A stretch of 62,498 nucleotides of DNA, counting the filler, from Asterionella formosa (Eukaryota): NCBI GenBank assembly GCA_002256025.1. It is 9 parts of 9 records of this genome, joined end to end, with 100 filler letters (N's around TTAATTAATTAA, not from the genome) between each part and the next. Parts side by side here need not be neighbours in the genome. Positions count along the whole stretch, not along the records: positions 20,899 to 27,758 come from NKIB01012589.1; 8 more parts are not named here. One strand, 5' to 3'. The notes beneath the pieces were generated by a model. The model was not told where the DNA came from and did no database searches. It saw nothing but the letters and a program-made list of their open reading frames with translations. Positions within the stretch are counted from its first letter, which is position 1. Every line of letters starts with the position of its first letter. The translations under genes were made by a program, and so were the position numbers. Shown piece by piece: positions 3,001 through 52,374 of this stretch.

Positions 3001-3465
3001 AATAGATCAACGTCGACAAGTGATAATTGACGAACGTCGTGCAAATTTTCGTCGTCGATCTTATGATTACAAAGTGGGTGACGAGATTTTAATATTATTG
3101 GATAATCCTACTACTTTGGATGATCGTGGACGAGGTCCTTACACTATTATTCAAGTACATGCCAATGGTACAGTTACTTTTCAACGCACTATGCACATTA
3201 CCGAACGAATTAATATTCGTCGTATCAAACCTTTTCATAGGTAAAAGGTTTTCCCTCAAGTGTGGGAGAGTGAGCAATCCTGCACATCGATACAGATATA
3301 TATAGAGTTAGGGTTATATCAAATGCATCGGAATTCAATAATGAGAGAACCCGACTAACATCCATTCTATACTTTGATGTCAGTTCAGGTAATGAGTTGT
3401 ACATAAGGATTAATTTATAAGCTCATATATTCAATAAATACTACTACTTCTAGTTAGATACTTCA
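1..3465 (+). mobile_element. Ty3/gypsy LTR retrotransposon, 3' part (decayed pol plus 3' LTR)
   Basis: Domain order PR (LFDSG, 37-507), RT (WASPTFIIPKKDG, YIDD), RNase H (DASDYQLG, TDH, NAIADSISR), integrase (HHCC-like, VDL, HDNGGEF, NPQANAICER, RGPY). Stops at 505-507 and 2633-2635, frameshifts near 660 and 1125. Purine tract GGGAGAG (3264-3270) precedes the LTR. Confidence 0.95.
3271..3465 (+). repeat. 3' LTR of gypsy element (~195 bp, TG...CA)
   Basis: Begins TGAGC right after the PPT; aligns closely with 48716-48880, and similarity ends at ...GATACTTCA(C). Confidence 0.9.
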
Positions 3466-4720
3466 CATGGTACCGATTCATAATGGTACCAATAGTACTG
3501 GTACCAGGTACCAGGTACGACCCTGGCACAATTGACTTCATATGAGTATGTGGTTGTTAGCAAATAGCTACAAGCATGTATGTTCTTGGAACATGATGAT
3601 TGCCGGTTTGGTACCAGGTACCAGTAACATCATGACAATGATGATACGATTATTGTAAACAGATAAATCACGAATTATTAACCAATTGTTGTTTTAAGCT
3701 TCTGGTATTATAGATTATGTCTACTTGATGTACGACGGTTATGTATGAACTACTCGGGTTTAAATCCGGCAAGAAATCATGGAGATATTGTCGTTGCGGT
3801 CGAACGCCATGTTGCTTCCACCGATTTTCTATTTTAGCTATTTCGCAATGAATATCAAAGCTAAAAGTTCGTTTCTTTCACTAATTGCTAGTGAGACGTG
3901 TATTCTATCTAAGCAACTAATAAAAGTGTTAAACGGTTGAACAGAGTCGAAAATTAATAGTCATTTTATCATGGTAATGGGAAATTTCTCATGTTCGATT
4001 CATGAGCGATTGTTTAATTCTTCCACCGGTACCAGGTACCAGGTATGTAGGCAGAGAGCATATATGTTATACATATAACCATATGTGCATGTACCGGTAC
4101 CACTATTTGTATTCCCGGACGTCTGCACTCATTGGCGGGGGTCGACCATCATCTTCTTTGATCCCTCTCCTGTGCCCGCATCTGACCCCGACGGAATCTA
4201 GCTCTCCGGTAAAAAAAACCAATCTTTTTTGGATTGGGGGGTTTTCGATTGGGGGAATGAGTTTGACCCTAAAATAGTTCCTGCCAAATCAAATTCTAGC
4301 ATAATAGTATTCAAAACGATCATGCCACAAGTGAAAAATAATCGTTTTCCGAGTTAGCCAGATTGTATATTTTAGAATTGGATCTACAGGCGTGTATATC
4401 CGAGATGTCCAAATCATCATTTCGGCAATTTTACCGCAACTTGCAGGTACCTGGTGCTCAAGCCGAAGACGCCAGTCGAAATTATGCAAATCCAGTGCCT
4501 ATTGCTTGTCTTGCGCTCGCCAATTTATGTTTATCAGGTCACAATCATCCCATTGCAGTCCTCAAGTTTCGTTGTGGTTCCTCAAACTCGTTTCTTTCTT
4601 TTCCATCCTTTTGCGCTGACAGTCTGTGTTTGTTTTGAAAGTAGACATCATATCTGTTTGTTTGCATGGTAGTTCTTAGTGACAAACTTGCTCTGCTGTG
4701 AACTCTTGTGACGTTGTTGA

Positions 4721-11627: not shown

Positions 11628-12848
11628 ATGAGAATATCTCTCCATCTCTTTTTCATTGTCCTTCATGGAGAATACGACTACACCATGAGTACCCCCAACA
11701 GTAAGTATCCCACTACTATTGTAGTCTCGTCCAGCAGCAACCCTGCCTCTCATTTCCGGGTAAGAAGCAGGAGACTACGAGGCCTAATGGACACTAAGCC
11801 TTTGGCCACCAGCACTTCCATTGACAATCATCATCATAGTACTTTCTCCATCAGCACTAGCTCCTCCTCAGATTTCGCTAGTACTACTACTTCTGGTATA
11901 TTGTTTGAGGGTGAACCTGGTGGTGAAAAAGAAGCTGCTACTACTAGCATTCGAGACCTTGCAACATTTCAACAAAGTCATTCTGATACTGCTCACTCCT
12001 TTCCTCCTATAGTAAGCCCTACTAGTACCAAAGGAGGAGGAAGCCCCACAGCAACAATGTATAGCCCGACAGCAACTGGAATCACAAGGGCAGATAGGCG
12101 AACTGCCAGAGGCAATCCCACCAGCGAAACAAGAACAATTCCTCCTTCGACTACAGGATTGCCAGCTACAACTACAAGAAGCCCAATTGCTGGGGAAACG
12201 ACAGAAGCACCTATCAGTATAACAAGAATCCCTACTCCAACGCCAAGTACTATAAAGGCACCTAGTACAACAACAGAAGCTCCTTTCAGCACAGAATCCC
12301 CTGTACGTACAACTACTGATGCGCCGGTCAGTACACGAAGCCCTATGCAAACAACTACTGAAGCACCTATCAGCACAGGAAACCCTATAAGTACAACTAC
12401 TGAAGCACCAATCAGTACGCGAAGCCCCATGAGTACAACTACCGAAGCACCTATCAACACAGGAAGCCCTATCAGTACAACTACTGAAGCGCCAATCAGT
12501 ACTCGAAGCCCAATGAGTACAACTACAGAAGCACCTATCAGCACAGGAAACCCTATGAGTATAACTACCGAAGCACCAATCAGTACGCAAAGCCCTATCA
12601 GTACAACTACTGAAGCACCTATCAGTACAGTAAGCCCTATGAGTACAACTACTGATGCGCCGGTCAGTACACGAAGCCCTAGGCGTACAACTACTGAAGC
12701 ACCTATCAGCACAGGAAACCCTATAAGTACAACTACCGAAGCACCAATCAGTACGCGAAGCCCTATGAGGACAACTACTGAAGCAAAGTACTCAAAAAGC
12801 AAGAGCGGATACGGACGCCCCAAAAACAAGGCAGGAGGTAAACGTTAA
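11628..12848 (+). CDS. Thr/Ser/Pro-rich mucin-like repeat protein with basic C-terminal tail
   Basis: ATG 11628, short hydrophobic N-terminus, RSRRLR motif, 12 copies of 14-aa STTTEAPISTRSPM, tail KYSKSKSGYGRPKNKAGGKR. Confidence 0.75.
   Translation: MRISLHLFFIVLHGEYDYTMSTPNSKYPTTIVVSSSSNPASHFRVRSRRLRGLMDTKPLATSTSIDNHHHSTFSISTSSSSDFASTTTSGILFEGEPGGEKEAATTSIRDLATFQQSHSDTAHSFPPIVSPTSTKGGGSPTATMYSPTATGITRADRRTARGNPTSETRTIPPSTTGLPATTTRSPIAGETTEAPISITRIPTPTPSTIKAPSTTTEAPFSTESPVRTTTDAPVSTRSPMQTTTEAPISTGNPISTTTEAPISTRSPMSTTTEAPINTGSPISTTTEAPISTRSPMSTTTEAPISTGNPMSITTEAPISTQSPISTTTEAPISTVSPMSTTTDAPVSTRSPRRTTTEAPISTGNPISTTTEAPISTRSPMRTTTEAKYSKSKSGYGRPKNKAGGKR
12264..12785 (+). repeat. Coding minisatellite, 42-bp unit x ~12.4
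   Basis: Unit approximately AGTACAACTACTGAAGCACCTATCAGCACACGAAGCCCTATG; variation is concentrated at third codon positions of the + frame. Confidence 0.95.
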
Positions 12849-20898: not shown

Positions 20899-21998
20899 CC
20901 TAGTTCTTGCACATCTAAAGAACTGCTATGTTTCTTGTTGTAAAACCATTCTCATGTGTTCATGCTTGCACTTCCTGTGTGAAGCAAGGGTAGGGTGGCT
21001 TGCTGAGGAAGGAGAATCAGCATGCGAAATTGTAATTGTGGGGATATGTAAGCTGTCAATTCATAATAATGGTACCTGGTACCAGGTACTCCCATAAAGG
21101 GAAAACAATCAGGGTAGTACCCAGAGAACATTGCAACTGATATGATACAGTCCTTGAAAGTGCTGGATAAAACAGGATAATTTATAAATCATATCCTATA
21201 TTATGGATGCTATTTATCTAAGTGCAACCAGTATTCCCTTCACATGTGTGGTCAGACCAGGAAGGCACTGAAGTGCATGGTTTATGCACACTTATTCAGT
21301 TTCAACTCACTCCCAATGATGTAGGTTGTCCATTATAATGGATCTAGAAATTCTTGGGGCAGCTGTTTTTCCTTCATTAGATATATATGATACCAGATAG
21401 CATACCCTACATAGACTCAAAACTTTAGATGACACCGCCCTGCCTAAATAATATGAGGAAAATGAATATGCACTTAAACACATGTACACACCAAATAGAC
21501 ACTGTATCTATGAAAGTAGTGGTAAACTGTGTACCCATTAAATCTGGTTTCTCATACCCCTCAATGTACACAGCCACGATTGATTTTAATTAGAGGGGAG
21601 TACAAGACATGGGTCCTTTTTTGATGATCCAACATAATGAAAAAACAAACTTCTCCACCGTTTTCTCTGTAGTCTAAATCGTAAATGGCAACATTAAAAG
21701 ATATATTGTTGTAGTTTCAAACGGTTTCTATTATCAATAGAATTTCTAGTTTTGGTGCACTGGTGCACCTGAGTTTCATGATGGCATCCATATAGAGTGT
21801 ACTTTATCCTACAATAGTAATAATTTGTGCAGGTTCTACGACTTGGATCGTGATAGAAAATGAGATGAGCCAAATATGATTAATGGACAAGAACTCTGAC
21901 ATGCACAAAATATTTCTGCATCCTGAGGCAGCAGGCGAAAATGATTCTATGAACACTTCCGGCAAGCTGACAACATCATCAAGGCCAGCACTTCCTGA

Positions 21999-22267
21999 TG
22001 TTGAAATTGCGTCCCGAAGCACTCTATGCTTTCTTGTATCCTGTAAGGACACGTCAGGGACCAAATAGGCTGTAGATATGAACAACGATGTCTCCGTGAT
22101 CGATTGTAATCGTTCCTAAGAGTTTTAATAAAATTATGGGTTTTTACTGTTGACGTAGATTGTTTTCGAATTCTCTGGTACCATATTCTTTCTTGATTCA
22201 TTCGATTCAATATGTAATAGGTAAAATTCATACCGGGATTTTCTTTCCTAAAATATTTTCTCCAACA
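21999..22267 (-). repeat. 3' LTR of copia
   Basis: Direct repeat of 26981-27249 with 5 substitutions. Confidence 0.96.
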
Positions 22268-22289
22268 CACTCCTGCTGGACACGGATAC

Positions 22290-25200
22290 TCACTTTGAAT
22301 TCATAATTTGCTGACGAAAATGAATAAATTTCGTTCCAACCAGTGGTTTCGTCATGTAGTCTGCTAACATTGCATCCGTTGGACAGTACTTGATTTTTAC
22401 TTCCTTTCTTTCAATAAGATCAGTAATATAAAAATATTTGATGTTGCAATGTCGCGTGCGTTTTCCAGAACTTGCTTTTCCATTTGCTTCCAGTTTCATT
22501 GCACTAGTGTTGTCACGGTAAATGACATTCGTAGTCACCCTGTGTCCTTGTGCTTCAATAAATAATTTCGTCCACAACACCTTTGATGTGATGTCATCGA
22601 TAGCAACCAATCAGCTTCAGTCAAGCTTCTAGTGTTCACTTTCTGTTTCGTGGACATAGAACAAATAATTCCATTTCCAAGTGACAATGTAGCTCCAGTG
22701 TGACTTTTAAAATCTTTGTAACTGCAAACGCCGCATCAACGTACCATTTAATGCTCTGAGTGTCATCAGCACTCATAGATGCAACCTCATTTTGAGTTGC
22801 TTTCAAGAAATTCATGATCTTGACTAATTTCGCCCAATCGCCTTCATTTGGTTCGATAGTTCAGGTCGCCAGAAATGCAATTCCTGGTTGAATGTCCTGT
22901 CTTCCTTGCTTACATAGGAACATTCCTTTCATAACAAAAGTATGAAATATTTTTACTTTTTCATATTCAAGCTTCTTTGATTTTGTATTAACTGTGAACA
23001 ATTTATCTGTCCATGGGAATTTTCCAACACTTTCAAGTTTCAATGGAAAATCATCAATCATTGATTTCACATATTTGGTCATGTCCACCCTCAACACTCC
23101 TGGAAGAAAGTAATCTAGTGTCATCGCCAAATAATCATGCTTCTTTCCACGCATGACCTTGACTTCACCAATTTCGTCAGAAGCGTATTTCTGTTTGAGC
23201 CATTCCAAAAATTGATCATTCACTTTGCTGTCCATGTGACTTGATTTCAAATCGTCTACGTGCCAAGTAACTGTGTGCTGTTTGCCATTAACAATGCGAT
23301 TTGCAACACATGGATCATATGGGTTGACCTTGAATCCAATTGACTCAATATCCTTCCGAAATTTCTTGTAATATAATAATGATGACTGTAACATGCCATA
23401 TAATGCCTTGATCATCCTAACATATAGGACCTTGTTGTTCTCTTCATAAACAACATATTTTTCATAAGTCTCGGGGCTGAGCTCTGTCAACATATTGACA
23501 AGCAAACCTCTAATCTTCATAATGATTCGTTCCCCTTTTTCTTTCTCATCGATATCCACTTGCACAAATGCATTGGGTATATCTGCAGTCATAACATCGC
23601 GATTTTGCTTCGCATCAATTGTTGCTGTTATCATAACAGATTCAGTCATGGTAGTTGGACTAGCTGCTTCATCTCTTTCCATGTATTCACGCTGCAAACT
23701 GCCATTGGCAAAAGCTCTGCCTTTAATGCTCTTGTCTCTCTTTTCAGCCAAAACAATTAGACTTTCCATTGCACGTCACTTTTCGATATCGGTTAGGTCT
23801 TCAATCCTAATCGGTTCAAATACAACTCTATCATGAACTTGATTCATTTCTTCATAAGCAGCATCTCTTCCTTACTGGCCAAATTTCTTGAGGCCTTTCT
23901 TTAAGCTGTATGACTGAACAAAGTGAAATGCTTCTATATTGAATGACATCTCATTAACATAATACATTGCCATTGCGATTACTTTCGCAATTTCAGTGAT
24001 GTATTCTTCTTGACAGTGTGCTTGGGTCAAATAATGTTGGACCATCGTTAGTTTTGTTGGTGGTCTTGAAAACCTTCCAGATCTTGTAGTTCTAACATTT
24101 GGGTCTGAGTCATCCTGAGTGCTTGGATTGACTTCTAACAATGCCTCTTCATTTTCAATTTCATTTGCTGGCTCTTCATCCTCATCTTGGATTTCATCTG
24201 CATTCATTTCAGTATTATTCTCATTGTTACCCTCAGGTTCAGGATCATCCTCTTGAGTATTGTTGTTTAATTCAAGCTGTTCTGCTTCATATATTTCATC
24301 CGGAGTCATTTCATCATAGTCTTCCTCTCCGAGAATTTCATCATTGCTTTCGTTGTCACTAGCGTCTTGATCTTCATAATCTTCATCTTGTGCATCTTCA
24401 AATGCTTCATTATCATAATCCACTCCTGCAATCCAAGCACTATCATAAAATAGTTGTCCCATTCGATTTGGTATCTTGAGACCATCTGGCATATTTTCCT
24501 GCACAGCAAGGGCGTGTACTTGATTCATGATTGCTGGGGTAAGTGGTAGAGGAGTAATTGTTTGTCTAGTGATCAATGAATTTGTAGGTAGGTGTAACAA
24601 TTCATGACCTCCTTGCACATTGTCATTGTAGCGTAGAAAAATGCAATCTAGGCTGCGAGGTGCATTAGTGTTTGAAAACACAGGTTCTTCATGTGCTTGG
24701 ACATAAGTGCCAAATGTATACTGGCAATGTCAAGCATAGTCCAGGTTTTGTTGATGTAAAATCATACGAGGACTGTAATACGGGGATATCCCGTTCTTTG
24801 CCGGAAAGAAATGCAGTTTCTTTGCAGATTCTGTCACTAGAATCTTAATCATCAGTCGTGGCAAATGTTTGAAAGGTAATCGATGATAAGCTGCGTGCAC
24901 GCCTTCTTTAATTACTCGATTATTTCGCTCCGCTTCGGGAACATGTTCTTGTGGGTTTGCGTAATTCATAGTGACTTGAAATTCATTGGAAATTTGTTCC
25001 ATCAAAGGTCGAAACTCGTTGTCACAGTGGATTGTTGTAATATTAAATCCTCCGGTATTATAAACACGGAATACTTGAATCAAAGCATCTCGATAGACTT
25101 CAGCTGTCTGATTCTTGACCCATTGCGCTGTCCTATACATAATGTTTCGAGAAATTGTTGTGAGAAATGATTGTCCATTGACTTTCATTCCATCCATGCA

Positions 25201-26847
25201 AAGAATCACATCGCGTTGAGCTTGGATAAGCTCCTTAGGAATCTCGATATAGTCGTTCACAACTGGCAGCGGCTTGCGACGAGTTGTCTTGCCTTTTAGT
25301 GTTCCGATGTCAGGTCCAAAAATTTTCTCTGCAATTTTGATATCATCGGTATTCACTGGATAATTGTTGATCGTATTCATACGAATTATTGCCTTGAAAT
25401 CATTAATTGATGGTGTACCCAAGGCATGAAATAAATCACAAGCTCGCTTGGCTCTTTCAAATTGACGCTCAGTGTAAAATGTTCTGTTTTCTTCAACCGA
25501 ATTAAACATTTGAGCATTTTCCGCTTTAATTTTTGTAGTAGGCTTGAAAACATATAAGTTAATCCCAATTCTTTTGAATCGAACTGGCTTGTCAGGCAAA
25601 TGAACAATGAATGCATCTTCTTTCTCAGAGTCATAGGTAATTCTGTACCTATCTGCCATTTCGGCATAACTGAAGATGTTTGTGATTACCCTTTCATTAA
25701 ACCATACTTCTCCCCATTGTGGAAGATCAGCCTTCATATCAGTGACCATGGATCCACCATTTGTGGCCAGGTGCATGATTCTGTTGGTTGACATTTGAAT
25801 GGTATCAACCATTTTTGGGTTGCAAAAGACTGTGACACTTGATTGATTATCCAATAGTATCCAGTCACGCATCTCAGATGCTTGGTAAAATTGTAGTTTC
25901 ATTTGAGCTCCCGTCCATCCAAATTGATTGACATTTGCTTGTTGTGAAGCTTGTGATGACGGCGGGTTGTTGGAATTAACAGAGGTAACTGTACTCGTTT
26001 CGGATGTATTAGCCTGTGCCTGTGCATGGCTTTGGGCCCTGTTGATAGCCCATTCCTCTTTGGGTTTGTTCTTGTCTCGACACGAAGAAGATTTGTGACC
26101 TGCTTTTCCGCAGCAGTAACATTTTCCTTCTAACTGTGCAAACGATAAGTTCACATCTTCATCTTCCTTGCCTGCATCCTTTTGTTTCCACTTGAGCACA
26201 TCTTGTGCCACACGAAATCTCTTGGTGTAGTCTTGTAGACTTTCTCCTTCTTTTTGCTTTGTGAATAAAAGCGTTCTCATTGCATCTAAAATGAATGACA
26301 TTGAATATCAATTCTCTTGAAAATTTAATGCGTGTTCTTTAATTGCCATAAGCAATGTTATTGGGTTATTTTTGATCCTATTGTAATCAGATCTTGCTTC
26401 AATCTTGTTCTTCATGGCTTTGTTGCATCTTTCCCGGATTTATGCATACGCCTTGGTATTATTATTTTCGTAGGCCTGTACCCTTTTACTGTAGGTGTCA
26501 TAGTCAGCTTTGAACTCAATCTCATATTGTCGATTCTCTGCAGCGCGATCTTCTTCTGTTGTTGCAATGCTCACTTGCATTCTCGGCTTCCATGCCAATG
26601 TGCTCATTGGTTCTTATAACTCGAGCGCGGTTCCTATGTCGTTGCCATAGTCGAACACTTTCTTGATATGATTGATGAGGTACTCAGTAGTAGTCTCATA
26701 GTCAGATGCCTGCTTTGATCATCCGAGGTAGTAGTTATAGTCATTGACTGACTTCTTGATTGAGTGAGAAGCAACATTGCTCCCTCCCTTGGCTTGAAAC
26801 TTGCCCTTGGCTTGAGTCTTCTTGGTAAAATTTCCTTTGCCACTCAT
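22290..26847 (-). pseudogene. Copia gag-pol with several stops and frameshifts
   Basis: Start MSGKGNF at 26847; CYCCGKAGHKSSSC knuckle; ILLDNQS protease; integrase MDGM/HCDNEF/HVPEAER; RT KALYG/WHVDDL; RNase H YRDNTS/ADYMTKPL. Confidence 0.93.
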
Positions 26848-26980
26848 GATGCGCCCTGTGCGACTTCTTCAGACTCTGGATGGTCTGGTACCCTCAGATC
26901 TTGTCTCCGGGCTCTCAATGGTCCGCCTGTTGTTGATTGTGGTATCACGGCTCTTCCTGGCCGGCTAATTCTATTAAAAC

Positions 26981-27249
26981 TGTTGAAATTGCGTCCCGAA
27001 GCACTCTATGCTTTCTTGTATCCTGTAAGGACACGTCAGGGACCAAATAGGCTGTAGATATGAACAACGATGTCTCCGTGATCAATTGTAATCGTTCCTA
27101 AGAGTTTTAATAGAATTATGGGTTTTTACTGTTGACGTAGATTGTTTTCGAATTCTCTGGTACCATATTCTTTCTTGATTCATTCGATTCAATATGTAAT
27201 AGGTAAAATTCATACCAGGATTTTCTTTCCTAATATATTTTCTCTAACA
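26981..27249 (-). repeat. 5' LTR of copia
   Basis: Direct repeat of 21999-22267; upstream of gag in element orientation. Confidence 0.96.
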
Positions 27250-27758
27250 CCTGATCCTATAGCATTCAGTGTACCTGGTAATACTTTAACACAGGTACCG
27301 GTATATGGGGGGATACGAGACACAAGGTTTTACGGCACATGATACCATATGACCCCAACTTCTATATGTGAACCGGCTTGTCGCCGGTACGGCTTGAATT
27401 TACCGGCAATAACTATTATATGTAGTTTTCTACATCTTTAACCAACACGTATTATTGCCAGTTAAATAGCATTTATTTTATTTCCATTATTTAATATGAA
27501 GATATAAATATAATCCCCCTGGCTGCCCGGAGAACATCAAAAGATGATTGTCAGTGATGAACATCGGCTACCAAATAGTACCAGGTACCTGGCACCTGGT
27601 AAGCTCATCATTTCGAGACTGATCATGGCATCCCAACTTTCGCGTTTGCCGAATAGCTCCTTTCAACACGGTCTCGCCAGGGTTGTGGCAACATTGGTTA
27701 ATTCGAAAACTCGTTTGACCAGAGTGCAGCATCAATCACCAAGCCGACTCCTGCCGAT

Positions 27759-27858
27759 NNNNNNNNNNNNNNNNNNNNNNNNNNNNNNNNNNNNNNNNNN
27801 NNTTAATTAATTAANNNNNNNNNNNNNNNNNNNNNNNNNNNNNNNNNNNNNNNNNNNN
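27759..27858. other. Artificial scaffold spacer
   Basis: 44 N + TTAATTAATTAA + 44 N. Confidence 0.98.
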
Positions 27859-29075
27859 ATGGCATTCAATCCTCGCTTTTGACCTTTGGATTCTTGTACA
27901 ACATGACGGGGAACTGCGATGCCAGTATCGTGGAATCAGTGGGAGAGGTAGTACAAAGTGAGTGGTTTCATACGGCCCTCACCACAGAAACATACGATGC
28001 GATTCTAGTATTGGCACACATGGATTATCAAGATGACCTCGTCATGGTCATTCGGAATGCCATTCGAACCATGATATCGGCCAGCATTCCCATTCAATTT
28101 ATTACAGGACATTCACACATCCGTGCCTTTACTGCAGTAGATGACGTTTCCACTTCGTTTGAAGCTGGACATTACCTAGACACTGTGGGCTTTGTTAGTT
28201 TTCCCATTTCCACTATGGACGAGACTGACACGACCAACAAGACAAATCAATTTCATCATGTATTTATCAATGCCAGCATAGATGATTTCCAAAGAACCTT
28301 GGACATGGATTCATTTGATACGGAGGAGGGGCAAGCATTGTCTCAATTTATTCAAACAACACGAGAATCCATGGGACTTTTTGTTGTCTTGGGGTGTTCC
28401 CCTCAAACGTTCATTCTTGACCATGGACTCAACCAAAGTGATTCCTTGTGGAAATTTTATTTGGATGAAGTTGTGGCGAAACAATATTTGAAATCGTCGA
28501 CAACATCTATTTTTCTGCAAGGCACGGGAGCATTTCGAGCATCCTTGTGGGAGGGTGAAGTAAATGTCGATGATATTATTTGTGTCTCTCCCTACAATGA
28601 TACCATTTATCTGGTAGATACGACTGTTGAAGGAAGTCTATTACTTCAATTGATCGGTGGTCAGCCGAATGATATCATCGCACCAGTGAATAAACTTGGT
28701 TTGCCAAGATATGGCAGTTCATTGTCATATATTGATTCAATGGAATCGTATCACCTGTACATTCCCAAATTTGACATGACCAACATTCTAGAACGATTAA
28801 ATAGCCTAGCTGGAGGTTCAATATTTACCGCTACTTTGCAGCAATCCGACATTGGCCTGGACGTGACGACTACTTCCTTGTGGATCAAATACATTGAGTC
28901 CCATTGGAATTGCACAGTAACTACTTCTAGGTACGACACCATTCTGCAATGGAAGTGGGTGATGGCAGTCCTTTTCATGCTCCTTTTGGTAGTATGGATG
29001 GCAGGATTGAAATGGTTTTTTCCGTGTTGTTGCCATCATCGACAGAGGGATGAAGGGTACTTGTCATTGGAATGA
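27859..29075 (+). CDS. Calcineurin-like metallophosphoesterase / 5'-nucleotidase-like protein with C-terminal TM anchor, 5' partial
   Basis: FGFLYNM, LVLAHMD, IQFITGHSHIR, SFEAGHYLDTVGF motifs; 5'-nucleotidase C-domain-like GAFRASL..G.V.VDDI..VSPY; hydrophobic C-terminal helix. Confidence 0.78.
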
Positions 29076-29431
29076 GAATTTTCACATACAATACGTACTT
29101 ATGACATTTACTGAACTCGGAGTTTGTATTGTCCAGGGTAGACCAAAACCAAGTATAAATCATCCAGTAATGGAGACTTGCAATATGAGGATTTCAAACC
29201 CACTCGAGCCGATGAATATTTCAATTGGATGTCATACCTACGGTGCTTCTGTTTGACTGCTGTTTGTAATTCAGAACAACAAATTAAAACAAATGCTGAT
29301 AGTCATATCATACTACCGGTAAGCTAATCTACGACCAAATTAAAAATGATACATGTATTAATACTAAACGTAACTTGATCAGTATAACCAGAACAGCGTT
29401 TTGTAGAGGTGAAAATGATATACAACATAAA

Positions 29432-31555
29432 TTATTGCACACTACCACCAGGTCTTAGACCAGACTTGGCCTTTGTTGAAGGAGCCTTGACGTCGGTTGC
29501 TATCACTGGTCTAGCTAGTTTCGGCAATGCAACATCCCAAACGTCCATACTGTCCCATTCCTCATTGTTGTCGGTGATACCGAGCATTGTCCTCAACTCG
29601 AAAGAGTCAGGTTTTGCTTCATCGGACACGATTGTGACATTCAATGCATCCAAAGTCAAATTGGTGACATCGTCTACAAGGTCGTGCTCTGAATACGTGT
29701 CATTAACACCATCGATATTAGTCAGTTTGCTAGATAGCATTGGTGGGAGACGGCCAAAATGTGACTTCCATTGTTGAACAATCCGGGTGTGCTCAATTTT
29801 GATAAATTGGAAATGCTCTTCTTGACTCTTTCCTTGTGGAATAGGGATGGTGCCCAGGATCATGGCCAAGATTTGATCCAACAATGAAAACCAATTGGAA
29901 ACAGTCTTAGACTCATCATCGTTGTTCACGTTGCTGCTGTTGTTATTTGCGCCAAATTCTTCTTCATCAGCCCACTCCTCCTCCTGTAGTGTTTCAATCA
30001 AGTCATCAACTTGCTGAAGTCTATTCTCCAGTGATTGAACAATGGTTTGGGCCATGCGATACTCTTGTGATTTACATTGTTCTCTCACTCTCTCTCCTTC
30101 CATTAAGGCTTGACGCAAACGTTCTTCTTGAAATGCCAACTTGGAGGCCACTTGTTGTTTTTGTAATTTCCGACGCTGTCGCTTTATTGTAGCCTGTCGA
30201 CGTGCCTTGGCACGAGCCTCTGAGTTAACGAAGGGTAAAACTTTCACAACGGCAGGAGCTTCAGTAGTTTCATTGTCATCGTAAAGGTCATCGTTACTAT
30301 CGACGCGCTCAGACTCACTTTCTGATTCCTCGATTGTTCGATAGATTTTAACATCATCATCATCATCATTGTCACTATTCATTGATAGTCGTTCTGCCAT
30401 ACTGTTATGAGTTGGTTCATTTGGAAAAGCAAATTCAGTATTTGTCAAATCCAACGCTTCCAAGCCACCATGTCGTCGGTTCAATTCCATCATCACCTCA
30501 CGTGACAATAATTCCTCAAGCTCTTGACCTCTTTGACGCGCCATTTCTAATCGATGATCCAATGTCTCCCTTACTTGGTACAAGGTATCTAATTGCACCT
30601 TCCGTTTTGTTGTTTTCCATAGCTGCAATTCTTTGCAAATGTTCCTTTCCATGAAACATTTTTGTTCCTCCTTGGCCAATTTTCGCAGTTCTCTTCCCAT
30701 GTTAATTTTCCAAAGGAGCGATTGCGAGCATTGTATCAAGTAGGAAAAGATGGTTTCCACCACATGTACCTCGTGTGTTTGCAACAGTCTTTTCCATTCT
30801 CGTGCAGTACTGATCACTGTATTTGTTTCTGGAATGACCAAATAGTCTGGATAGGGTATGATGGAATATCGCAAGGATGTACCTTGAGTACCGGACGATG
30901 TACCGGTATTCCCCTGAATGGCCATATTGTGTTGTAATAGTTCCATAGCTTGTTCCTCGAACTGCCTACAGTCGTCGTCTTCGTTGCTGTCATCATTGCT
31001 TGTCGACAAGGCCAAAATCACTTGACGTTCAAGTTCTTTATGTTCTTCCCAATTGGTTGGTGTATATCCACAAATCGCCTGTAAATCAACAATCAATGCT
31101 GGTAAATGAGATGGTGGTGACATGGACATGTTGTCATCTGAGTCGTCCTCAATGCCGCTGCTTTCGTCGCTGTCGTTTGCAATATCTGGATCAGCTTGAC
31201 GCCTGGGAACAGGAAGTGTCATGACATCATCCCATTCTGAAATCTTGGTTATTGGTGATGATTCAACATGATCATAATGGTCAAGATATCCAGTTGGTTC
31301 TTCTGCCACCGCCTCTTGCTGATTCATTACTGTAGTACCACCATCATTCGATGTACTACCGATGGCTGCATCCGTATTCTCACTATCCGTAGCAGTATTC
31401 TTGCTGTTTCTGTTGCTTAAGAACATTGGTACCAATGGGACGAGCCCCGCAGTTGAGAGACCATGATGGGCAGCATGCTTTGGTTTTTCGTTCCACTGTC
31501 GGAGTTGATCCACCAGCTCCGTTGATAACTGAATGGTAACACCCAGGTCGTCCAT
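29432..31555 (-). CDS. Hypothetical acidic / coiled-coil protein (~707 aa)
   Basis: Long uninterrupted ORF, likely start MDDLG at 31555; charged coiled-coil segments; no domain recognised. Confidence 0.75.
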   Translation of the reverse strand: MDDLGVTIQLSTELVDQLRQWNEKPKHAAHHGLSTAGLVPLVPMFLSNRNSKNTATDSENTDAAIGSTSNDGGTTVMNQQEAVAEEPTGYLDHYDHVESSPITKISEWDDVMTLPVPRRQADPDIANDSDESSGIEDDSDDNMSMSPPSHLPALIVDLQAICGYTPTNWEEHKELERQVILALSTSNDDSNEDDDCRQFEEQAMELLQHNMAIQGNTGTSSGTQGTSLRYSIIPYPDYLVIPETNTVISTAREWKRLLQTHEVHVVETIFSYLIQCSQSLLWKINMGRELRKLAKEEQKCFMERNICKELQLWKTTKRKVQLDTLYQVRETLDHRLEMARQRGQELEELLSREVMMELNRRHGGLEALDLTNTEFAFPNEPTHNSMAERLSMNSDNDDDDDVKIYRTIEESESESERVDSNDDLYDDNETTEAPAVVKVLPFVNSEARAKARRQATIKRQRRKLQKQQVASKLAFQEERLRQALMEGERVREQCKSQEYRMAQTIVQSLENRLQQVDDLIETLQEEEWADEEEFGANNNSSNVNNDDESKTVSNWFSLLDQILAMILGTIPIPQGKSQEEHFQFIKIEHTRIVQQWKSHFGRLPPMLSSKLTNIDGVNDTYSEHDLVDDVTNLTLDALNVTIVSDEAKPDSFELRTMLGITDNNEEWDSMDVWDVALPKLARPVIATDVKAPSTKAKSGLRPGGSVQ

Positions 31556-31965
31556 GATCCTGGATTTTTTATCAAAGGCGCTGAAAATATAAAGAATGAA
31601 AAACTGTGTTTGTGTGGACATGAGAGTGAGAGGTGGTACCAGGGTACCAGTAGGTTTATATGTGTTATTTGCGTAAACAGAGATACCGGTACATATACCG
31701 CTAGATTTATTCATGATGGTATGATAGAGACTTACCTAGTACTCAGGTGAGTCAAAAGAGAATTTACAATACGAGGCAAGTAGGAATTGCAACTGTTCCA
31801 GAGTTGTCTGTTCAATATGCACATTGGTACATCAATGAGAAATCAGGATTCTTAGTTGAACTCGAACGTTCCAAAGATACGCACTCCTTCTCACTGACTT
31901 TGTGCATGAGTTGTGGAAGATTTTCGCTCACTTTCAAGTCCACCCACAGACAGAACCCCATCACC

Positions 31966-32882
31966 ATGAAGTCCGCTGCCGTTTTTGCTCTCCTTGCCGC
32001 TTCGGCTTCTGCGTTTGCCCCCACTCCTGCTGCTGTGAGTAGTTCCAATAGTGGTCGATATCATGATCTTGTTTTCACTGACTCGCAACGGACATCGATA
32101 GAGCCGACACAAGTTCGCACTGAGTAGTAGTAGTAGTAGCAGTAGTAGTAGTACTTGAACTTGCTTTGGTCGCTGCAACGAAGTAATATCAGGCGCAACT
32201 CGATCTGCCATTGTGCTCAATTCGTTCACGTAGATATGACGGGTGTACGACTCAACGCAAACTCACACAGCTTCTTCTCATTCAATAACAGGACACCAAG
32301 AGCAGCGCCCTTTACGACTCGCTTGATCCTTCCATTGGAGTCACCGCTCCTTTGGGCCTGTACGACCCACTTGGATGGTTGGACCCTGCCAAGGACCCTG
32401 CCAGCAAATTTGCCACCTTTCACGCGAACTTTGAACGTCGCCGTGCAGTGGAGCGCAAGCATGGACGCATTGCCATGGTTGCCGTAGTTGGTATGCTGTT
32501 CCACAATGCCAATATTGAATTCCCAGGATACCTTTCCAAGGAACTTGGAATCCGCTTCAGCGATGTCCCCAACGGCATCAACGGACTCTTCTCGATTCCA
32601 CTTGCAGGCCTGACCCAGATTGTCTTCGCCATTGGATTTGTTGAGCTTGCCATCTGGCCCGCATCCAAGTACGATGGAGACTACGGAACCGGATACGGAC
32701 GACCATTTGTCCCTAATGTTCTTGAGGGAGACGAGCTCAAGTACAAGCTTGATATGGAGATCAACCAGGGCAGAGCAGCCATGCTTGGAATCTTTGGTGC
32801 TATGGTTGGAGAAGTTGTCACTGGTCAGACTCTCGCAGAGCAAGTTGCAAGCGGAAACCTCATTGGATACGGTCCTCCCTAA
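31966..32882 (+). CDS. Fucoxanthin chlorophyll a/c-binding light-harvesting protein (Lhcq/Lhcf16-like); exons 31966-32034, 32292-32882
   Basis: Bipartite presequence MKSAAVFALLAASASAFAP; GVTAPLGLYDPLG; helix 1 RRAVERKHGRIAM; helix 3 EINQGRAAM. Confidence 0.95.
32122..32154. repeat. (AGT)n microsatellite in the Lhc intron
   Basis: gagtagtagtagtagtagcagtagtagtagtac. Confidence 0.9.
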
Positions 32883-33933
32883 ATTTATGTTTCTATACCT
32901 TACTTAAAAATGACGCAGAAACGCATGCAAAATGGATGAACGATTGACTCGTCCTTGTTGTATTGACACTGATAGCTACAGTAAATAGAAACACAACAAT
33001 CGGAAAATCACTTAGGAGTAGTTGTCTGAAGAAGATCTTTTCAATTAGAAATGCTTCTTTTAATACATTAAGCCATGATCATACAAACGTGTGTTGATTC
33101 TGAGGCAACACCAATCATTGAACCTTGCATTGGACTAATGGAAAAACAAGGCAATCTTCAAACAAAAGAACTTAAAATTGCCATCATTTATGGATGTTGA
33201 ACAATGAGGGTGAGGAGCTGGAGAATTCTGTGATGTGCCATCACTAAGATGCTTCGCGCTTAAATACCAGTATTCTGTTGTCTCTGTAGAAGTCAATAGC
33301 AAGGCATAATGTATTTTGTTGCACATGAGGTTAAGGTTCAATACAATTCCGACATATTTATGTAGTTATCATCCTATGATCATAGTACATAATGAGGAGA
33401 CCTCTAAACTTGCCCTTATCTATTTTCTCCATGTTATTTGGTTGCTTGACTATTTCAGGCAACCTATTGAAATTAATAACTGACTCCTAATCTCAAACTA
33501 AATACTGGTACATTGCTAACTAACTATGTTAAAAAGCTTCTTACTACTTTCCACAGGTGGTTTTCCTTTTCTTAGATTCTTAATGTCTAGTAGTACTCAC
33601 TAGTATTACTTAATTTTCTCTTCTTTCTTTGCTAACCATCCTGCTAGAAACTGATTGAACTTCCTGTCAATTCAATTGCTAATTCTAAAATTAATGTTCA
33701 AAATCAATGATTTCCTTTCCTTTCATCTCTGCTTCTTACAAGTCGTTTTAAGAGCCTCTTCGAATTTCCATCTAACAAATTGAATTCAATCTCCATTGTT
33801 ATCATCAATCTTTGATCTCATTAGCCAGGTGATTGATGTGGCGATGCAAGATTCGACTCCTTGGAGTACAATCCAGTCCACAATCCTCGTGACTCGAACT
33901 TATTTAATTGGTGACAGCCCATCACTACCGGTA

Positions 33934-40285: not shown

Positions 40286-40669
40286 GTTCGTTTGTCCGTT
40301 GCAGCAGAACCAAGGAAGATAGATAGAACAATCAGGAATAGAGAATGGCAAATTAAATATTTTAGCGAAGCACAGTACCGGTAATCATTCAGTAAAAAAC
40401 TAGGGAAGGAGCCAGAACTCTCAATATCTATAATTATTTAAGTTTTGATTGCAAAACGTGTTATTCTGTGTTCACTGGGTCACGGCAGTTCAAAAATATT
40501 GGGTCATGGCAGTTTTTTACTGGTACCTGGTACTCAGTACCATAAATGCGAGTCCTGAACAAGCTCCACTTGATCAAGTTCGTTTGTCCGTGCAGCAGAA
40601 CCATGGAAGATTGAACAATCAGGAATAGAAAGTGGCAAATTATTTATTTTATCGAAGCAGTAATCATTC
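40286..40669. repeat. ~100-bp direct repeat upstream of HSF (40286-40390 and 40578-40669)
   Basis: GTTCGTTTGTCCGT..GCAGCAGAACCA.GGAAGAT...GAACAATCAGGAATAGA...GTAATCATTC in both copies. Confidence 0.88.
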
Positions 40670-48715: not shown

Positions 48716-50911
48716 TATAGGGTTAGGGTTATATCAAATATATCGGAATTCAATAATGAGAGAACTCGACTAACACCCATTCTATACTTTGATGTCAGTT
48801 CAGGAAATGAGTTGTACATAAGGATTAATTAATAAGCTCATATATTCAACAAATACTACTATTTCTAGTTAGATACTTCACTTTGAATTCAAAAAGAGTC
48901 GAATTAGAAGACAACAAACATGGCAATGTATTCAAGGGTTCCTGTGGTTCCTTTGATCAAAGACTACAATGTATTGACTATCAAGACTAAAACATTCAGA
49001 GTTGCTTTAACCGGTGGAAGGTTTGAATCGTTTGATCAAGATATGATCGATGGAAGCTCGGTGGAAGCATTGTTAATTGGAGTGAGTCAATTTCGTGACA
49101 TGGCTAACACATGTGCCTTTAGCCCTGCAGATACCTTTTCCTACTTTAAAAGGTGTTTGACCGACATTGCCTTATCGGATTGGTTGAATGTGGAAGTACA
49201 CCCAGAAGATCAATCTTACGATAGTTTCGATGAAGCGATGGTTTTATGGTTAGACGATCGTTTACCAAATGAGAGTTTTCAACGTCAACGACAATGGATG
49301 CTACGTTATTTATCTAAACCCTTTTCTATGTTGGTAATGGATTTCGGAGCTCGTATTAAAATTCTAAACAGGCTACTTCAACTAATGCCTCATCCAGAAG
49401 ATCAAAACGAATTGTCAAAAGAAGATATGCGGATTATCATTATCCGTTCTATGCCCGATGAGTGGCAACAAGAGTTTGAATTAAATCATGCAAAGACTTC
49501 AGACCAATCGATTCGCTCGGTTCTCGCTTACTTCGAGAGTCAACAATCGTTTAAGGATCGAAACAAGCATCTTCCCAAGAACAGTTTTCAAACAATCACA
49601 CAGAACCGTCTTCGCATTGCTGAAGGCAATCGTGTGATGCATCAAGAAAACGAGCGTGTCGGACGTCAATTCTATAAGGATAATTTTACTCCAAGTGGTC
49701 GTGGAAGAGCGCGTGCTATTGTCAATGCAGCCGGACGCGCATGGGATCGTCAGGCAACTGTTCGTCATCAAGCTCTACAAGCCAGTCGTACATACCATGA
49801 TTATCGTGGTCCTTGCCCGGTACATCCTGAAGGTGTGCATACTTGGGGCAATTGTTTCCAAAATCCTCGTACTCAAGGTGGTCGAGCAGGTCGTATGGCT
49901 GGTCGTCATAATGGATATGGCCGTTCCAGTTTCGGTAGACGAGGACATTTTGGTGGTCGTGGAGGCGGTGTACACAGCAATCCTACGGAAAGCTATCATA
50001 CTGACACTGCTAACCCTGTGCCTGTTCCACATGCTCGTATGTTAAATGCATGGGGTCATAATACTCATCCATCCGGTTGGGGTACCGTGCCACGTGCCGA
50101 TCCTACCGAGAATACATCTGCCCAGGAAATTTCAGTGGTCACGAACCCTCCTGCTGGTCAGATAGTGACTTTTGTCCCTTCTACACAACAGCAGATTGCT
50201 GATCGCCATTACAGAGGTATGTGCGATAATAGCGATGCTATTTATAATGACTCGTTGAGTATATCTCACGTTAGTCATCACCTGAATAATATTGTTTATT
50301 TACTGGTTGAATACACTATGGATACCGCTGTTAATGTAACGCGGGACATATATAAATGTATTGATGGACATGATGTTCCACATACATATCAGGGACCAAT
50401 TCCGGTTTCCTGTTTTACCCTTTTAAGGATATATTAACATCAATTGATTTGATTCCGATGTCCCTTTTAGCGCCAAGATTGGTGGATAATATACCGATAC
50501 ATAAAATACTACGAGTATTATTCGATAGTGGAGGATCATTATCCTTAATACATGAACGGGTTATGCCTCAAGGTATTTCTTTGTCTGACGAGACTTCCCA
50601 ATTAATACATACCATAGCTGGTACTTATTCATCTCATGCCAGTGTCATGCTATATGACCTGATTTTACCAGAATTTAATCGATCCGCTCATATTTTACAA
50701 CAAAAGTGTCAAGTCTTTAATGGTCTATGCACATTTGATGTTATTTTTGGACGTGATTTCCTCCGTCAAGTTGGTTTAACCATTGATTTCGTAAATAACA
50801 CCATGTCCTGTATGGATATGATCGTTCCTATGCATCCTCTCACATTCTTTGATGATAGAGAACGTTTACGAGATGTATTATTATATTTCGATGCACCTAT
50901 GATTGTGGAAT
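48716..50911 (+). mobile_element. Second copy of the same Ty3/gypsy family: partial 5' LTR (48716-48880), gag, protease; truncated at ~50911
   Basis: LTR matches 3301-3465; 50411-50911 is near-identical to 1-502; gag ORF 48920-50437. Confidence 0.95.
48920..50437 (+). CDS. Gypsy gag
   Basis: 505-aa ORF directly after the LTR; capsid-like SMPDEWQQEF; C-x2-H-x4-H-x4-C knuckle (CPVHPEGVHTWGNC); RG-rich nucleocapsid region. Confidence 0.85.
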   Translation: MAMYSRVPVVPLIKDYNVLTIKTKTFRVALTGGRFESFDQDMIDGSSVEALLIGVSQFRDMANTCAFSPADTFSYFKRCLTDIALSDWLNVEVHPEDQSYDSFDEAMVLWLDDRLPNESFQRQRQWMLRYLSKPFSMLVMDFGARIKILNRLLQLMPHPEDQNELSKEDMRIIIIRSMPDEWQQEFELNHAKTSDQSIRSVLAYFESQQSFKDRNKHLPKNSFQTITQNRLRIAEGNRVMHQENERVGRQFYKDNFTPSGRGRARAIVNAAGRAWDRQATVRHQALQASRTYHDYRGPCPVHPEGVHTWGNCFQNPRTQGGRAGRMAGRHNGYGRSSFGRRGHFGGRGGGVHSNPTESYHTDTANPVPVPHARMLNAWGHNTHPSGWGTVPRADPTENTSAQEISVVTNPPAGQIVTFVPSTQQQIADRHYRGMCDNSDAIYNDSLSISHVSHHLNNIVYLLVEYTMDTAVNVTRDIYKCIDGHDVPHTYQGPIPVSCFTLLRIY

Positions 50912-51909
50912 TACATTGACACAACGACACACAATTCCATTGTATCCTCTTGCTTCACTTACCACAAATCAATGCAACTGATGCATAAGTCTGTAATAGT
51001 AACTTGGGTAAGCCAAATTATTGAATAAGTAAGTTTCGGGTATCCAATGTTGTCGAATAAAACTTACCGGTTCATTTTTTTCAGCTTAACTTTGAGAGAA
51101 GGTCAACTTTTTGTCAGTTTTGTTCCAACAGAAGTGAATAGGTCCAACAAGCGACAAGAGCACTTACGCAATTTGGTTTGGTTTTGTTTTACATTGGTGC
51201 TCCCCAACAAGCGAAACGAGCTGTTGAATCAACTGAGAAAACAGGAAATGTGCGTTTAGTTAACAATTTGTTGTTGTGCTGCCTGCCTCCCAACGATTGT
51301 CATCCAAGTACCACATTGATGGCTTCATTACCTTAATCATTCTCCATCCTTCGAAGGCGCAATGTGTCGAAGCCACAATGTTTTTCGTTATGTATTGCGT
51401 AAACTTTCTTTTCTTGTCATGTGCTTAACTACAACATATCTTTTCAAGAAGCAGCAGGCATTGTTTGTTAACATGACAGAACGATTTCAAAAATATATAT
51501 GCCATGAATATAGTAATAAAATTTGTAAATATTTATATATATATTAAGTGTTATACATTTATAAAATTCAAAGGCGCTCTTGATATGGAACATCTGATAT
51601 GGTTGAGATGATCATACTCGCATATACATAATTCGAAAATACTCAATGCACTATATGTCCATTGTTTTCCATGACTACGTGTACCGGTATTGTTTCTGAA
51701 AATTGTTTGCATTGATATTTTCTACGTCCGTTGAAACTAATTATTTAGACCGTTCAAATGCCGCAAGGGTTTTGGTAGCAAATTGTTTAAGCCCCTTTTT
51801 TGGTTGGGAGCTCTTCATGTGTACCGGTACATCATAAACTATGACAATAACAATATATCATATATATATATACAGAGTACCAGTAGCAGGTAGTAAGTGA
51901 TATACTGGG

Positions 51910-52374
51910 GGTAGTCGGAGTAGTAAACTAGCAACAGAACACCATATGTTCAGGACTGTTGCTACTGCAGTGGGACAGTAAATCATCATAGTTTTAGGAT
52001 CCTATGATCGTAAAACTAAAAACCAAAAGAACACCATATGTTCATGACTGTTGCAATTACAGTGGGACAGTAAATCATCATCATTTTAGGATCGTATGAT
52101 CGTAAAACTAAAAACAAATAGAACACCATATGTTCAGGACTGTTGCTACTGCAGTGGGACAGTAAATCATCATAGTTTTAGGATTGTATGATCGTAAAAC
52201 TAAAAACCAATAGAACACCATATAATCAGGACTGTTGCTACTGCAGTGGGATAGTAAATCATCATACTTTTAGGATTGTATGATCGTGAAACTGAAAAGC
52301 GGTAGTCGGAGTAATAAGCAAGCAATAGAACACCATATGTCTATGACTGCTGCTACTGCAGCGGGACAGTAAAT
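51910..52374. repeat. 92-bp minisatellite, ~4.5 copies
   Basis: AGAACACCATAT unit starts at 51936, 52028, 52120, 52212 and 52327. Confidence 0.93.

Follow-up and report, generated by a model that had tools for sequence, protein, structure and literature searches.

The locus described here raises the question of how a diatom LTR retrotransposon primes its minus-strand DNA synthesis when the primer-binding site (PBS) position, next to the 5' LTR, is occupied by a complement of its own LTR interior instead of a tRNA-type site. The window analysed, a stretch of 62,498 nucleotides from Asterionella formosa (assembly GCA_002256025.1), consists of small contigs chained via N spacers, and the contig carrying the element spans positions 20899-27758. 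The element is a defective copy of 5251 bp, recognised from direct repeats, broken ORFs and tblastn comparison with its relatives. It occupies positions 21999..27249 on the minus strand, and all the features located below lie on this same strand. Alignment of the two LTRs placed the 5' LTR (TGTTAG...TTTCAACA) at 26981..27249 and the 3' LTR at 21999..22267, each with a true length of 269 nt; a repeat search had given 270 nt, the extra nucleotide being a flanking G coincidentally common to both. The two LTRs differ at 5 positions, start with TGTT and end with CAACA, and the 5' LTR read in the element sense has its terminus ...AATTTCAACA at 26981. The element is bordered by the TSD TCAGG, the upstream copy of which (27250..27254) was identified from the sequence and the LTR alignment and the downstream copy (21994..21998) from the LTR alignment. 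The polypurine tract preceding the 3' LTR reads CAGCAGGAGTG, and its end, the octamer CAGGAGTG (22268..22275), abuts the 3' LTR on the 5' side. This octamer is also found ahead of LTR starts in related loci.

The gag start codon is located at 26845..26847, where residue 1 of the relatives P0001 and P0002 aligns (tblastn). An ORF piece of 523 codons (24730..26301), situated 5' of the reverse transcriptase (RT) ORF, encodes the C-terminal part of gag, which includes a CCHC zinc knuckle, together with a beta-rich domain and the integrase core, as indicated by homologues, zinc-knuckle matches and fold. Among its 404 homologues, those with source names come from diatoms, namely Fragilaria crotonensis (67% identity), Epithemia clementina and Attheya, and a diatom origin of the element is supported by these named homologues. 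Pfam rve gave no match in the 523-aa ORF or in the relatives searched, the ORF itself yielding a weak zinc knuckle only, and a PDB sequence search with an alignment of 30 homologues (alignment A2) returned nucleocapsid zinc knuckles only. The integrase was recognised by fold alone: the AlphaFold model of the ORF (mean pLDDT 74.8) matched retroviral integrase catalytic cores in Foldseek with E values of about 1e-8 to 4e-7 and a TMt of 0.71-0.76. The ORF piece at 22861..23769 carries a copia-type RT (Pfam RVT_2, E = 1.3e-12, 48.3 bits vs a cut-off of 31.6), and RVT_2 is also present in the intact relatives L035, where it covers residues 1235-1475 of 1714, and L064. Because the integrase precedes the RT, the RT is of the RVT_2 type, the LTRs are of the TG..CA form and the TSD is 5 bp long, the element is a Ty1/copia retrotransposon. 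The initial annotation had called it so, and the RVT_2 domain, the integrase fold 5' of RT and the diatom homologues all agree with that assignment.

The copy present in the window is dead. Its coding region is broken into at least four pieces, one of its several defects being a premature in-frame TGA in gag (26719..26721), read from the sequence, and about 107 codons of its relatives are absent at 26187-26190, as seen by tblastn. Contigs from other copies have loose ends at this same place. When eight relatives were used as tblastn queries, the remaining contigs of the window yielded no further member of the protein family. The related loci L035, L050, L064 and L073 have open frames of 1471-1840 codons and are likely to represent active members of the family.

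Directly after the 5' LTR, the element reads GTTTTAATAGAATTA (26980..26966), and the exact reverse complement of this 15-mer lies at 27118..27104 in the same LTR. The last LTR base, A 26981, pairs with T 27103, so that the duplex reaches 16 bp. Its 3' arm, the putative PBS AGTTTTAATAGAATTA, occupies 26966..26981, the first base being the last base of the LTR. Its 5' arm, the proposed self-primer TAATTCTATTAAAACT, occupies 27103..27118, between CCA on its 5' side and CTTAGG on its 3' side, and is the exact complement of the PBS. In the 3' LTR, the copy of the 5' arm (22122-22136) carries one mismatch. The initial annotation had drawn attention to the 15-nt complement (16 nt with the last LTR base), to the CCA ahead of the 5' arm and to the single mismatch in the 3' LTR copy against none in the 5' LTR; the first two were recovered in the sequence and the third by match search. 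When the RNA from 27121 to 26940 was folded, the 16-bp stem closed R-U5, and the MFE of -48.9 kcal/mol (z = -3.5) was equalled by none of 200 shuffles. Rfam returned no family at E <= 1 for positions 26700-27300, and the hammerhead-like look of CTGACG...GAAAG in U5 was considered but dropped as a candidate.

Given an AT-rich region and a dead copy, the complementarity could be a chance match or an artefact of one degenerate copy. However, a search for the PBS 15-mer with up to two mismatches gave four matches in the window, against a mean of 0.23 in shuffled sequences, and 0 of 100 shuffles reached four. The feature also recurs in related elements. The 30 homologues of alignment A2 were used to fetch 80 related loci from metagenome contigs, which share 33-65% amino-acid identity with the window element in the best protein segment, and 33 of these 80 loci possess the feature, with no identified counter-example. 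A blind search for perfect inverted repeats of at least 13 bp with a loop of 40-400 nt detected 34 stems in 336,470 nt, as opposed to 0-4 stems in each of 20 block shuffles of the loci, and 30 of the 34 stand directly after CAAC or CAAG, i.e. at the LTR end. At a threshold of 12 bp, 37 stems were obtained, 32 of them (in 31 loci) at the LTR-end position and 5 elsewhere. Locus L041 bears a 10-bp version of the stem. The contig of L035 starts 2 nt before the PBS, which complements the interior of its own 3' LTR over 14 nt. The probability that chance or a single degenerate copy explains the match is, in view of this recurrence and of the shuffles, negligible.

For 42 of the 47 loci without the feature, most of which lack the 5' LTR, the upstream sequence is shorter than 684 nt, which is the minimum among the positive loci. 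Locus L053, whose contig begins within the ORF, is also among these 47, and the contigs of L003, L030 and L077 begin in the leader and do not include the LTR end. No complement was found in L050, in which the LTR end could not be located. Among the 80 loci, there is none with an identifiable 5' LTR end followed by non-complementary sequence. A relaxed search (15-mers, up to two mismatches) of the 49 loci without a stem at the PBS position revealed no degenerate version at that position, and a search in trans against 3' LTR parts gave nothing in a PBS context besides L035. As would be expected, no complementarity is seen in the flanks after the 3' LTRs of the window element, L003 and L066. The loss of complementarity in relatives, which the initial annotation had put forward as an observation that would speak against its reading, was not seen: the complementarity is kept wherever the LTR end is on the contig (33 of the 80 loci).

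Covariation between the two arms was analysed in 33 elements, consisting of the window element and 32 loci. These contain 30 distinct arm sequences, each forming 10-19 bp (median 15-16), exclusively Watson-Crick, with the LTR of its own element, and the complement to the LTRs of other elements is mostly 5-8 nt. Counting outwards from the inner stem end, Watson-Crick pairs make up 99.5% of those at the first 13 positions, against a mean of 44% and a maximum of 56% when partners were shuffled among elements (1000 shuffles). Nearly every position of the stem shows 3-4 pair types, and the pairing collapses at positions 15-16. The number of G:U pairs at positions 0-14 is zero, in stems that were seeded on perfect matches, so that G:U-containing stems could be under-detected. 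For 11 elements, RNAalifold predicted the terminal stem only, with 15 pairs, of which 13 display double compensatory changes and 0 a one-sided change; it gave no equivalent of the additional U5 structures of Tf1. The covariation of LTR interior and PBS, which the initial annotation had regarded as informative, was thus found, the sequences differing between families and the two arms of each element still being complementary. The pairing of the arms is almost certainly functional, and either selected or templated.

Copia elements normally use tRNA-Met or half-tRNAs (PMC6317226, in the sections available), and it was considered that the PBS may complement a host tRNA, a tRNA half or another small RNA, the match to the LTR being secondary. 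The absence of a TGG or tRNA-type site after the 5' LTR, noted earlier for the window copy, extends to the relatives: no PBS begins with TGG, and none of the 30 families has a TGG at a distance of up to 10 nt from the LTR end. Over the 45 nt that follow the LTR, no 8-mer is common to more than 3 of the 30 families, and ARAGORN found no tRNA gene in the window. Moreover, the PBS varies between families at nearly every position, yet it matches its own LTR. A conserved host RNA is rejected as the primer because 30 different sites cannot all fit it. This explanation is accordingly highly improbable, and from the sequences compared here a tRNA primer appears effectively excluded.

The arms also occupy defined positions. 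The first base of the 3' arm is either the last LTR base or the one after it, the LTR end having been verified independently in the two-LTR elements (the window element and L066), and the 5' arm is located 56-183 nt upstream of the 3' arm. At the 5' edge of the 5' arm, a CA is present in 27 of the 33 elements, the background being 0.059 per register; this CA stands directly before the arm in 15 of them, and its A is the first paired base in the other 12. The motif TCAHW occurs within 6 nt of this edge in 28 of the 33 elements. In six elements (L017-L020, L026 and L080), the complementary stretch continues beyond the CA by 2-4 nt, which counts against the self-priming reading. At the end of the 5' arm, 22 of the 33 elements have T at position 0, and 26 of the 33 have C at +1. 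As to the sequence after the 5' arm, one subclade has CTTAG or CTAAG and another CGATA.

For diatom promoters, the available text of PMC4686930 cites CAY(+1)A and puts forward TCAH(+1)W as an initiator-like motif, and that of PMC4368664 gives the oomycete motif TCATTCC, with +1 inside the motif. Because the CA and TCAHW at the arm edge fit the diatom initiator-like consensus, we infer that the 5' arm begins at the expected transcription start, which in the window copy would lie at 27118..27119, with the CA directly 5' of the arm.

Sequencing runs were available as assembled Logan contigs, which cannot show RNA ends. Six RNA-library runs, whose libraries may include DNA, contain 14-32% of the sampled words of the element, and about 17 DNA runs from freshwater-type samples contain 37-40%, which is the proportion expected for a family consensus about 97% identical to the window copy. 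Three of the RNA runs cover 24-29 of the 30 element bins. Against the predicted start stands one RNA-library contig, X23 (record 23, 27044-27206), which spans it; this contig may derive from DNA, or from that portion of a transcript which belongs to the 3' LTR. A depth spike and an abundant short RNA were noted in run X23, although depth per contig does not locate an RNA end. Among the variant rows listed, none lay within either arm.

The diatom copia family probably self-primes in a Tf1-like manner, with the first ~16 nt of its own RNA. This is the reading proposed in the initial annotation, and it has gained support from the relatives (33 of 80 loci) and from covariation, the mechanism itself being put forward here as a model. 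In this model, transcription would start within the 5' LTR, at the CA just ahead of 27118, and the first ~16 nt of the RNA would pair with 26981..26966, either by folding back or in trans within a dimer. The RNase H of the element would cut the RNA at the end of the duplex, at about 27103/27102 (predicted cut at 27102..27103, by analogy with Tf1), and the freed 3' OH would prime the minus-strand strong-stop DNA through U5 and R. In the general scheme of reverse transcription of LTR elements, the plus-strand strong-stop DNA copies the primer still on the minus strand. In the diatom element, it would copy the attached primer to its 5' end, with the consequence that the PBS would be rewritten in every cycle. 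A PBS templated by the primer would entail perfect Watson-Crick arms without G:U pairs, free divergence of the arms between families and a sharp outer boundary of the arm at the start site. As a result of this rewriting, the PBS and the start-proximal sequence would drift together unconstrained, which would account for 30 sequences in 33 elements.

The same pairing may alternatively represent a conserved fold of the RNA in the 5' leader, closing R-U5 and serving packaging, dimerisation, translation control or the assembly of the initiation complex, in which case another primer would bind elsewhere. The stem is both thermodynamically strong and conserved, and LTR retroelements use long-range 5' pairings, Tf1 needing extra structure, to judge from titles in the reference list of PMC4600332. 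However, the 30 families offer no alternative primer site, lacking both TGG and any common sequence after the LTR. The 3' arm starts exactly at the LTR end, which fixes the start of minus-strand synthesis, and the 5' arm has its 5' edge at the initiator-like CA. Furthermore, the absence of G:U from 30 x 15 pairs is unusual for a purely structural helix and fits a templated copy. A role restricted to leader structure is thus unlikely.

The strict Watson-Crick pairing without G:U would also be expected of an inverted repeat acting as DNA, either as a cDNA hairpin or strand-transfer aid, or as a protein-binding site. Against this, the 30 different arm sequences hold nothing conserved for recognition by a protein, and the boundaries of the arms match an RNA landmark, the predicted start site. 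No mechanism with exactly such a geometry is known. A function at the DNA level is therefore very unlikely, and self-priming is retained as the preferred reading in what follows.

Self-priming has been experimentally established for Tf1 and Tf2 of Schizosaccharomyces pombe, Tj1 of S. japonicus and the wider Tf1/sushi group of Ty3/gypsy elements. In Tf1, as described in the accessible parts of PMC7175516 and PMC5006619, the PBS is bound by the 11 nt at the very start of the mRNA. RNase H then cleaves the transcript between nt 11 and 12, and minus-strand synthesis proceeds from the short RNA released in this way. In the case of Tj1, self-priming was called from the complementarity of the PBS to the mRNA 5' end (PMC4600332, same limitation). 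According to the available portions of these three papers, the accepted signature of self-priming is a PBS complementary to the mRNA 5' end inside the 5' LTR (PMC7175516, PMC4600332, PMC5006619).

As in the Tf1 group, the PBS of the diatom elements lies directly after the 5' LTR and has its complement within that LTR. They are also devoid of a tRNA-type PBS, and the 3' end of their 5' arm faces the U5 end, as priming requires. Unlike the Tf1 group, they encode an RT of the RVT_2 type with the integrase located 5' of it, in place of a gypsy-type RT and the order RT-RH-INT. The diatom element would thus work like Tf1 while not being a Tf1/sushi member. Two further differences from Tf1 concern the RNA itself: the diatom duplex, known from sequence alone, comprises 15-17 bp, usually including the last LTR base, as compared with 11 bp in Tf1, and no extra conserved U5 stem was predicted by RNAalifold in the diatom elements.

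Within Ty1/copia, self-priming has been predicted for the plant TAR lineage by Neumann et al. (2019, PMC6317226), who, in the part of the paper available, also cite an earlier proposal for Houba and Osr-1. The initial annotation had taken self-priming to be unreported for copia; this view does not hold in the light of the TAR prediction. Both the diatom lineage and TAR belong to Ty1/copia, have no tRNA PBS and are predicted from sequence to self-prime; they differ in their hosts, which are Viridiplantae for TAR and diatoms for the elements described here. In the fungal copia element GalEa, a Conserved Hairpin Site replaces the PBS, and its authors found no complementary LTR sequence, according to the available text of PMC5445492. 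GalEa and the diatom elements share the lack of a tRNA PBS and the presence of a self-complementary feature at the PBS position. In GalEa, however, a conserved sequence forms this palindrome or hairpin locally, whereas in the diatom elements the partner lies 56-183 nt upstream in the LTR and its sequence is free. With the copia elements primed by tRNA-Met or half-tRNAs (Ty1, copia, Osser and Bianca, among others), the diatom elements have in common the TG...CA LTRs, the 5-bp TSD, the PPT and the order gag-PR-INT-RT-RH, but they lack TGG or any tRNA-complementary site, and their PBS is family-specific.

A literature search, in which subscription journals were thinly covered, found no report on the priming of diatom copia elements, and nothing on priming was found in the available portion of Maumus et al. 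(2009, PMC2806351), which deals with diatom copia. Self-priming is thus not new for copia, given the plant TAR prediction, and no prior report for diatom copia was found.

A broader proposal, to which we incline slightly, is that a widespread clade of diatom Ty1/copia elements has abandoned tRNA primers, independently of Tf1/sushi and of plant TAR, and uses a 15-17-nt self-primer with a PBS rewritten in each cycle. If true, self-priming would occur in a third lineage and a second superfamily, in stramenopiles, and such a clade would be invisible both to annotation based on a tRNA PBS and to host defence targeting tRNA primer-binding sites. Elements without a tRNA PBS would escape any silencing guided by 3' tRNA fragments, a concept presented in the accessible part of PMC7472051. 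LTR pipelines that demand a tRNA-type PBS would presumably discard these elements and under-count diatom copia. The signature, an LTR-end sequence complementing an LTR-internal stretch bounded by TCA, is one for which algal genomes can be scanned. The finding also bears on whether hairpin priming and self-priming are ancestral or have evolved repeatedly, as discussed in PMC3601003. For diatom copia elements, it provides a concrete, testable model of replication, with a predicted start site for each family.

The polypurine tract of the Ty1/copia element ends in the octamer CAGGAGTG, which lies immediately 5' of the LTR start (CAGGAGTG followed by TGTTG) at all identifiable LTR starts. The octamer is found on the minus strand at positions 22268-22275, 23095-23102 and 24421-24428 of the window, where it is counted 6 times against 1.58 expected, and it is also present in many of the related loci from metagenome contigs. 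Further copies occupy conserved internal sites, notably within TTGGATTG-CAGGAGTG-GATTATGA. At these sites the octamer may serve as a central polypurine tract, or it may simply reflect conserved codons. One internal copy adjoins an arm of a second, long-range inverted repeat inside the element (24118-24130 / 24429-24441), which has arms of 12-13 bp, a loop of 170-300 nt and a counterpart at 2860/3047 in the related locus L003. Imperfect forms of this repeat are present in L030, L041, L042, L067 and L077; because the arm sequence is conserved, covariation between the arms cannot be judged.

At the contig joint 27250->22269, the internal 3' end, a single LTR and the PBS with the leader lie on the same contigs. 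A similar joined layout is seen in loci such as L002, L004, L010, L016, L026, L029 and L059, and many loci have either the polypurine tract directly 5' of the apparent 5' LTR or terminal overlaps. Such one-LTR joins probably arose because the repeats of a multi-copy element were collapsed during assembly, giving circularly permuted contigs, although they could also represent tandem copies or 1-LTR circles.

Elsewhere in the window, on a contig different from that of the element, a 12-bp inverted pair with a loop of 109 nt (40390-40401 / 40511-40522) resembles the layout formed by the PBS and its complementary 5' arm in that TCA starts the first arm and CTAGG comes after it, but there is no CAACA ahead of its second arm. 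No protein related to the element's family was found on that contig. Among the related loci, a 14-bp hairpin, GGGTTGTCAAAGTT...AACTTTGACAACCC, is common to L027 (608-704) and L041 (1843-1950) outside the PBS context and may belong to another repeat. The window also contains tandem repeats (12162-12833 and 51841-52298), one type with 11 copies of a 42-nt unit and another with 4 copies of a 92-nt unit, as well as some segments common to different contigs at 94-99% (8-502 with 50420-50911, and 3301-3466 with 48716-48881).

In run X23, a lake RNA library, summed contig depth between 26844 and 27209 reached 26,741-33,396 in the pair of bins that span R-U5, the PBS and the beginning of the leader, compared with 135 in the next bin upstream and at most 1,486 downstream; at position 27062 it was 64,167. 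This peak might reflect an abundant short 5' RNA, but contig depth is a non-local measure that may count contigs of other organisms. Immediately 3' of the proposed primer, at 27097-27102 and the equivalent position in relatives, one subclade carries a conserved CTTAG, CTAAG or CCTAG and another CGATA, and position +1 after the primer is C in 26 of the 33 elements compared. This stretch could provide a cleavage-site context or act as a downstream promoter element.
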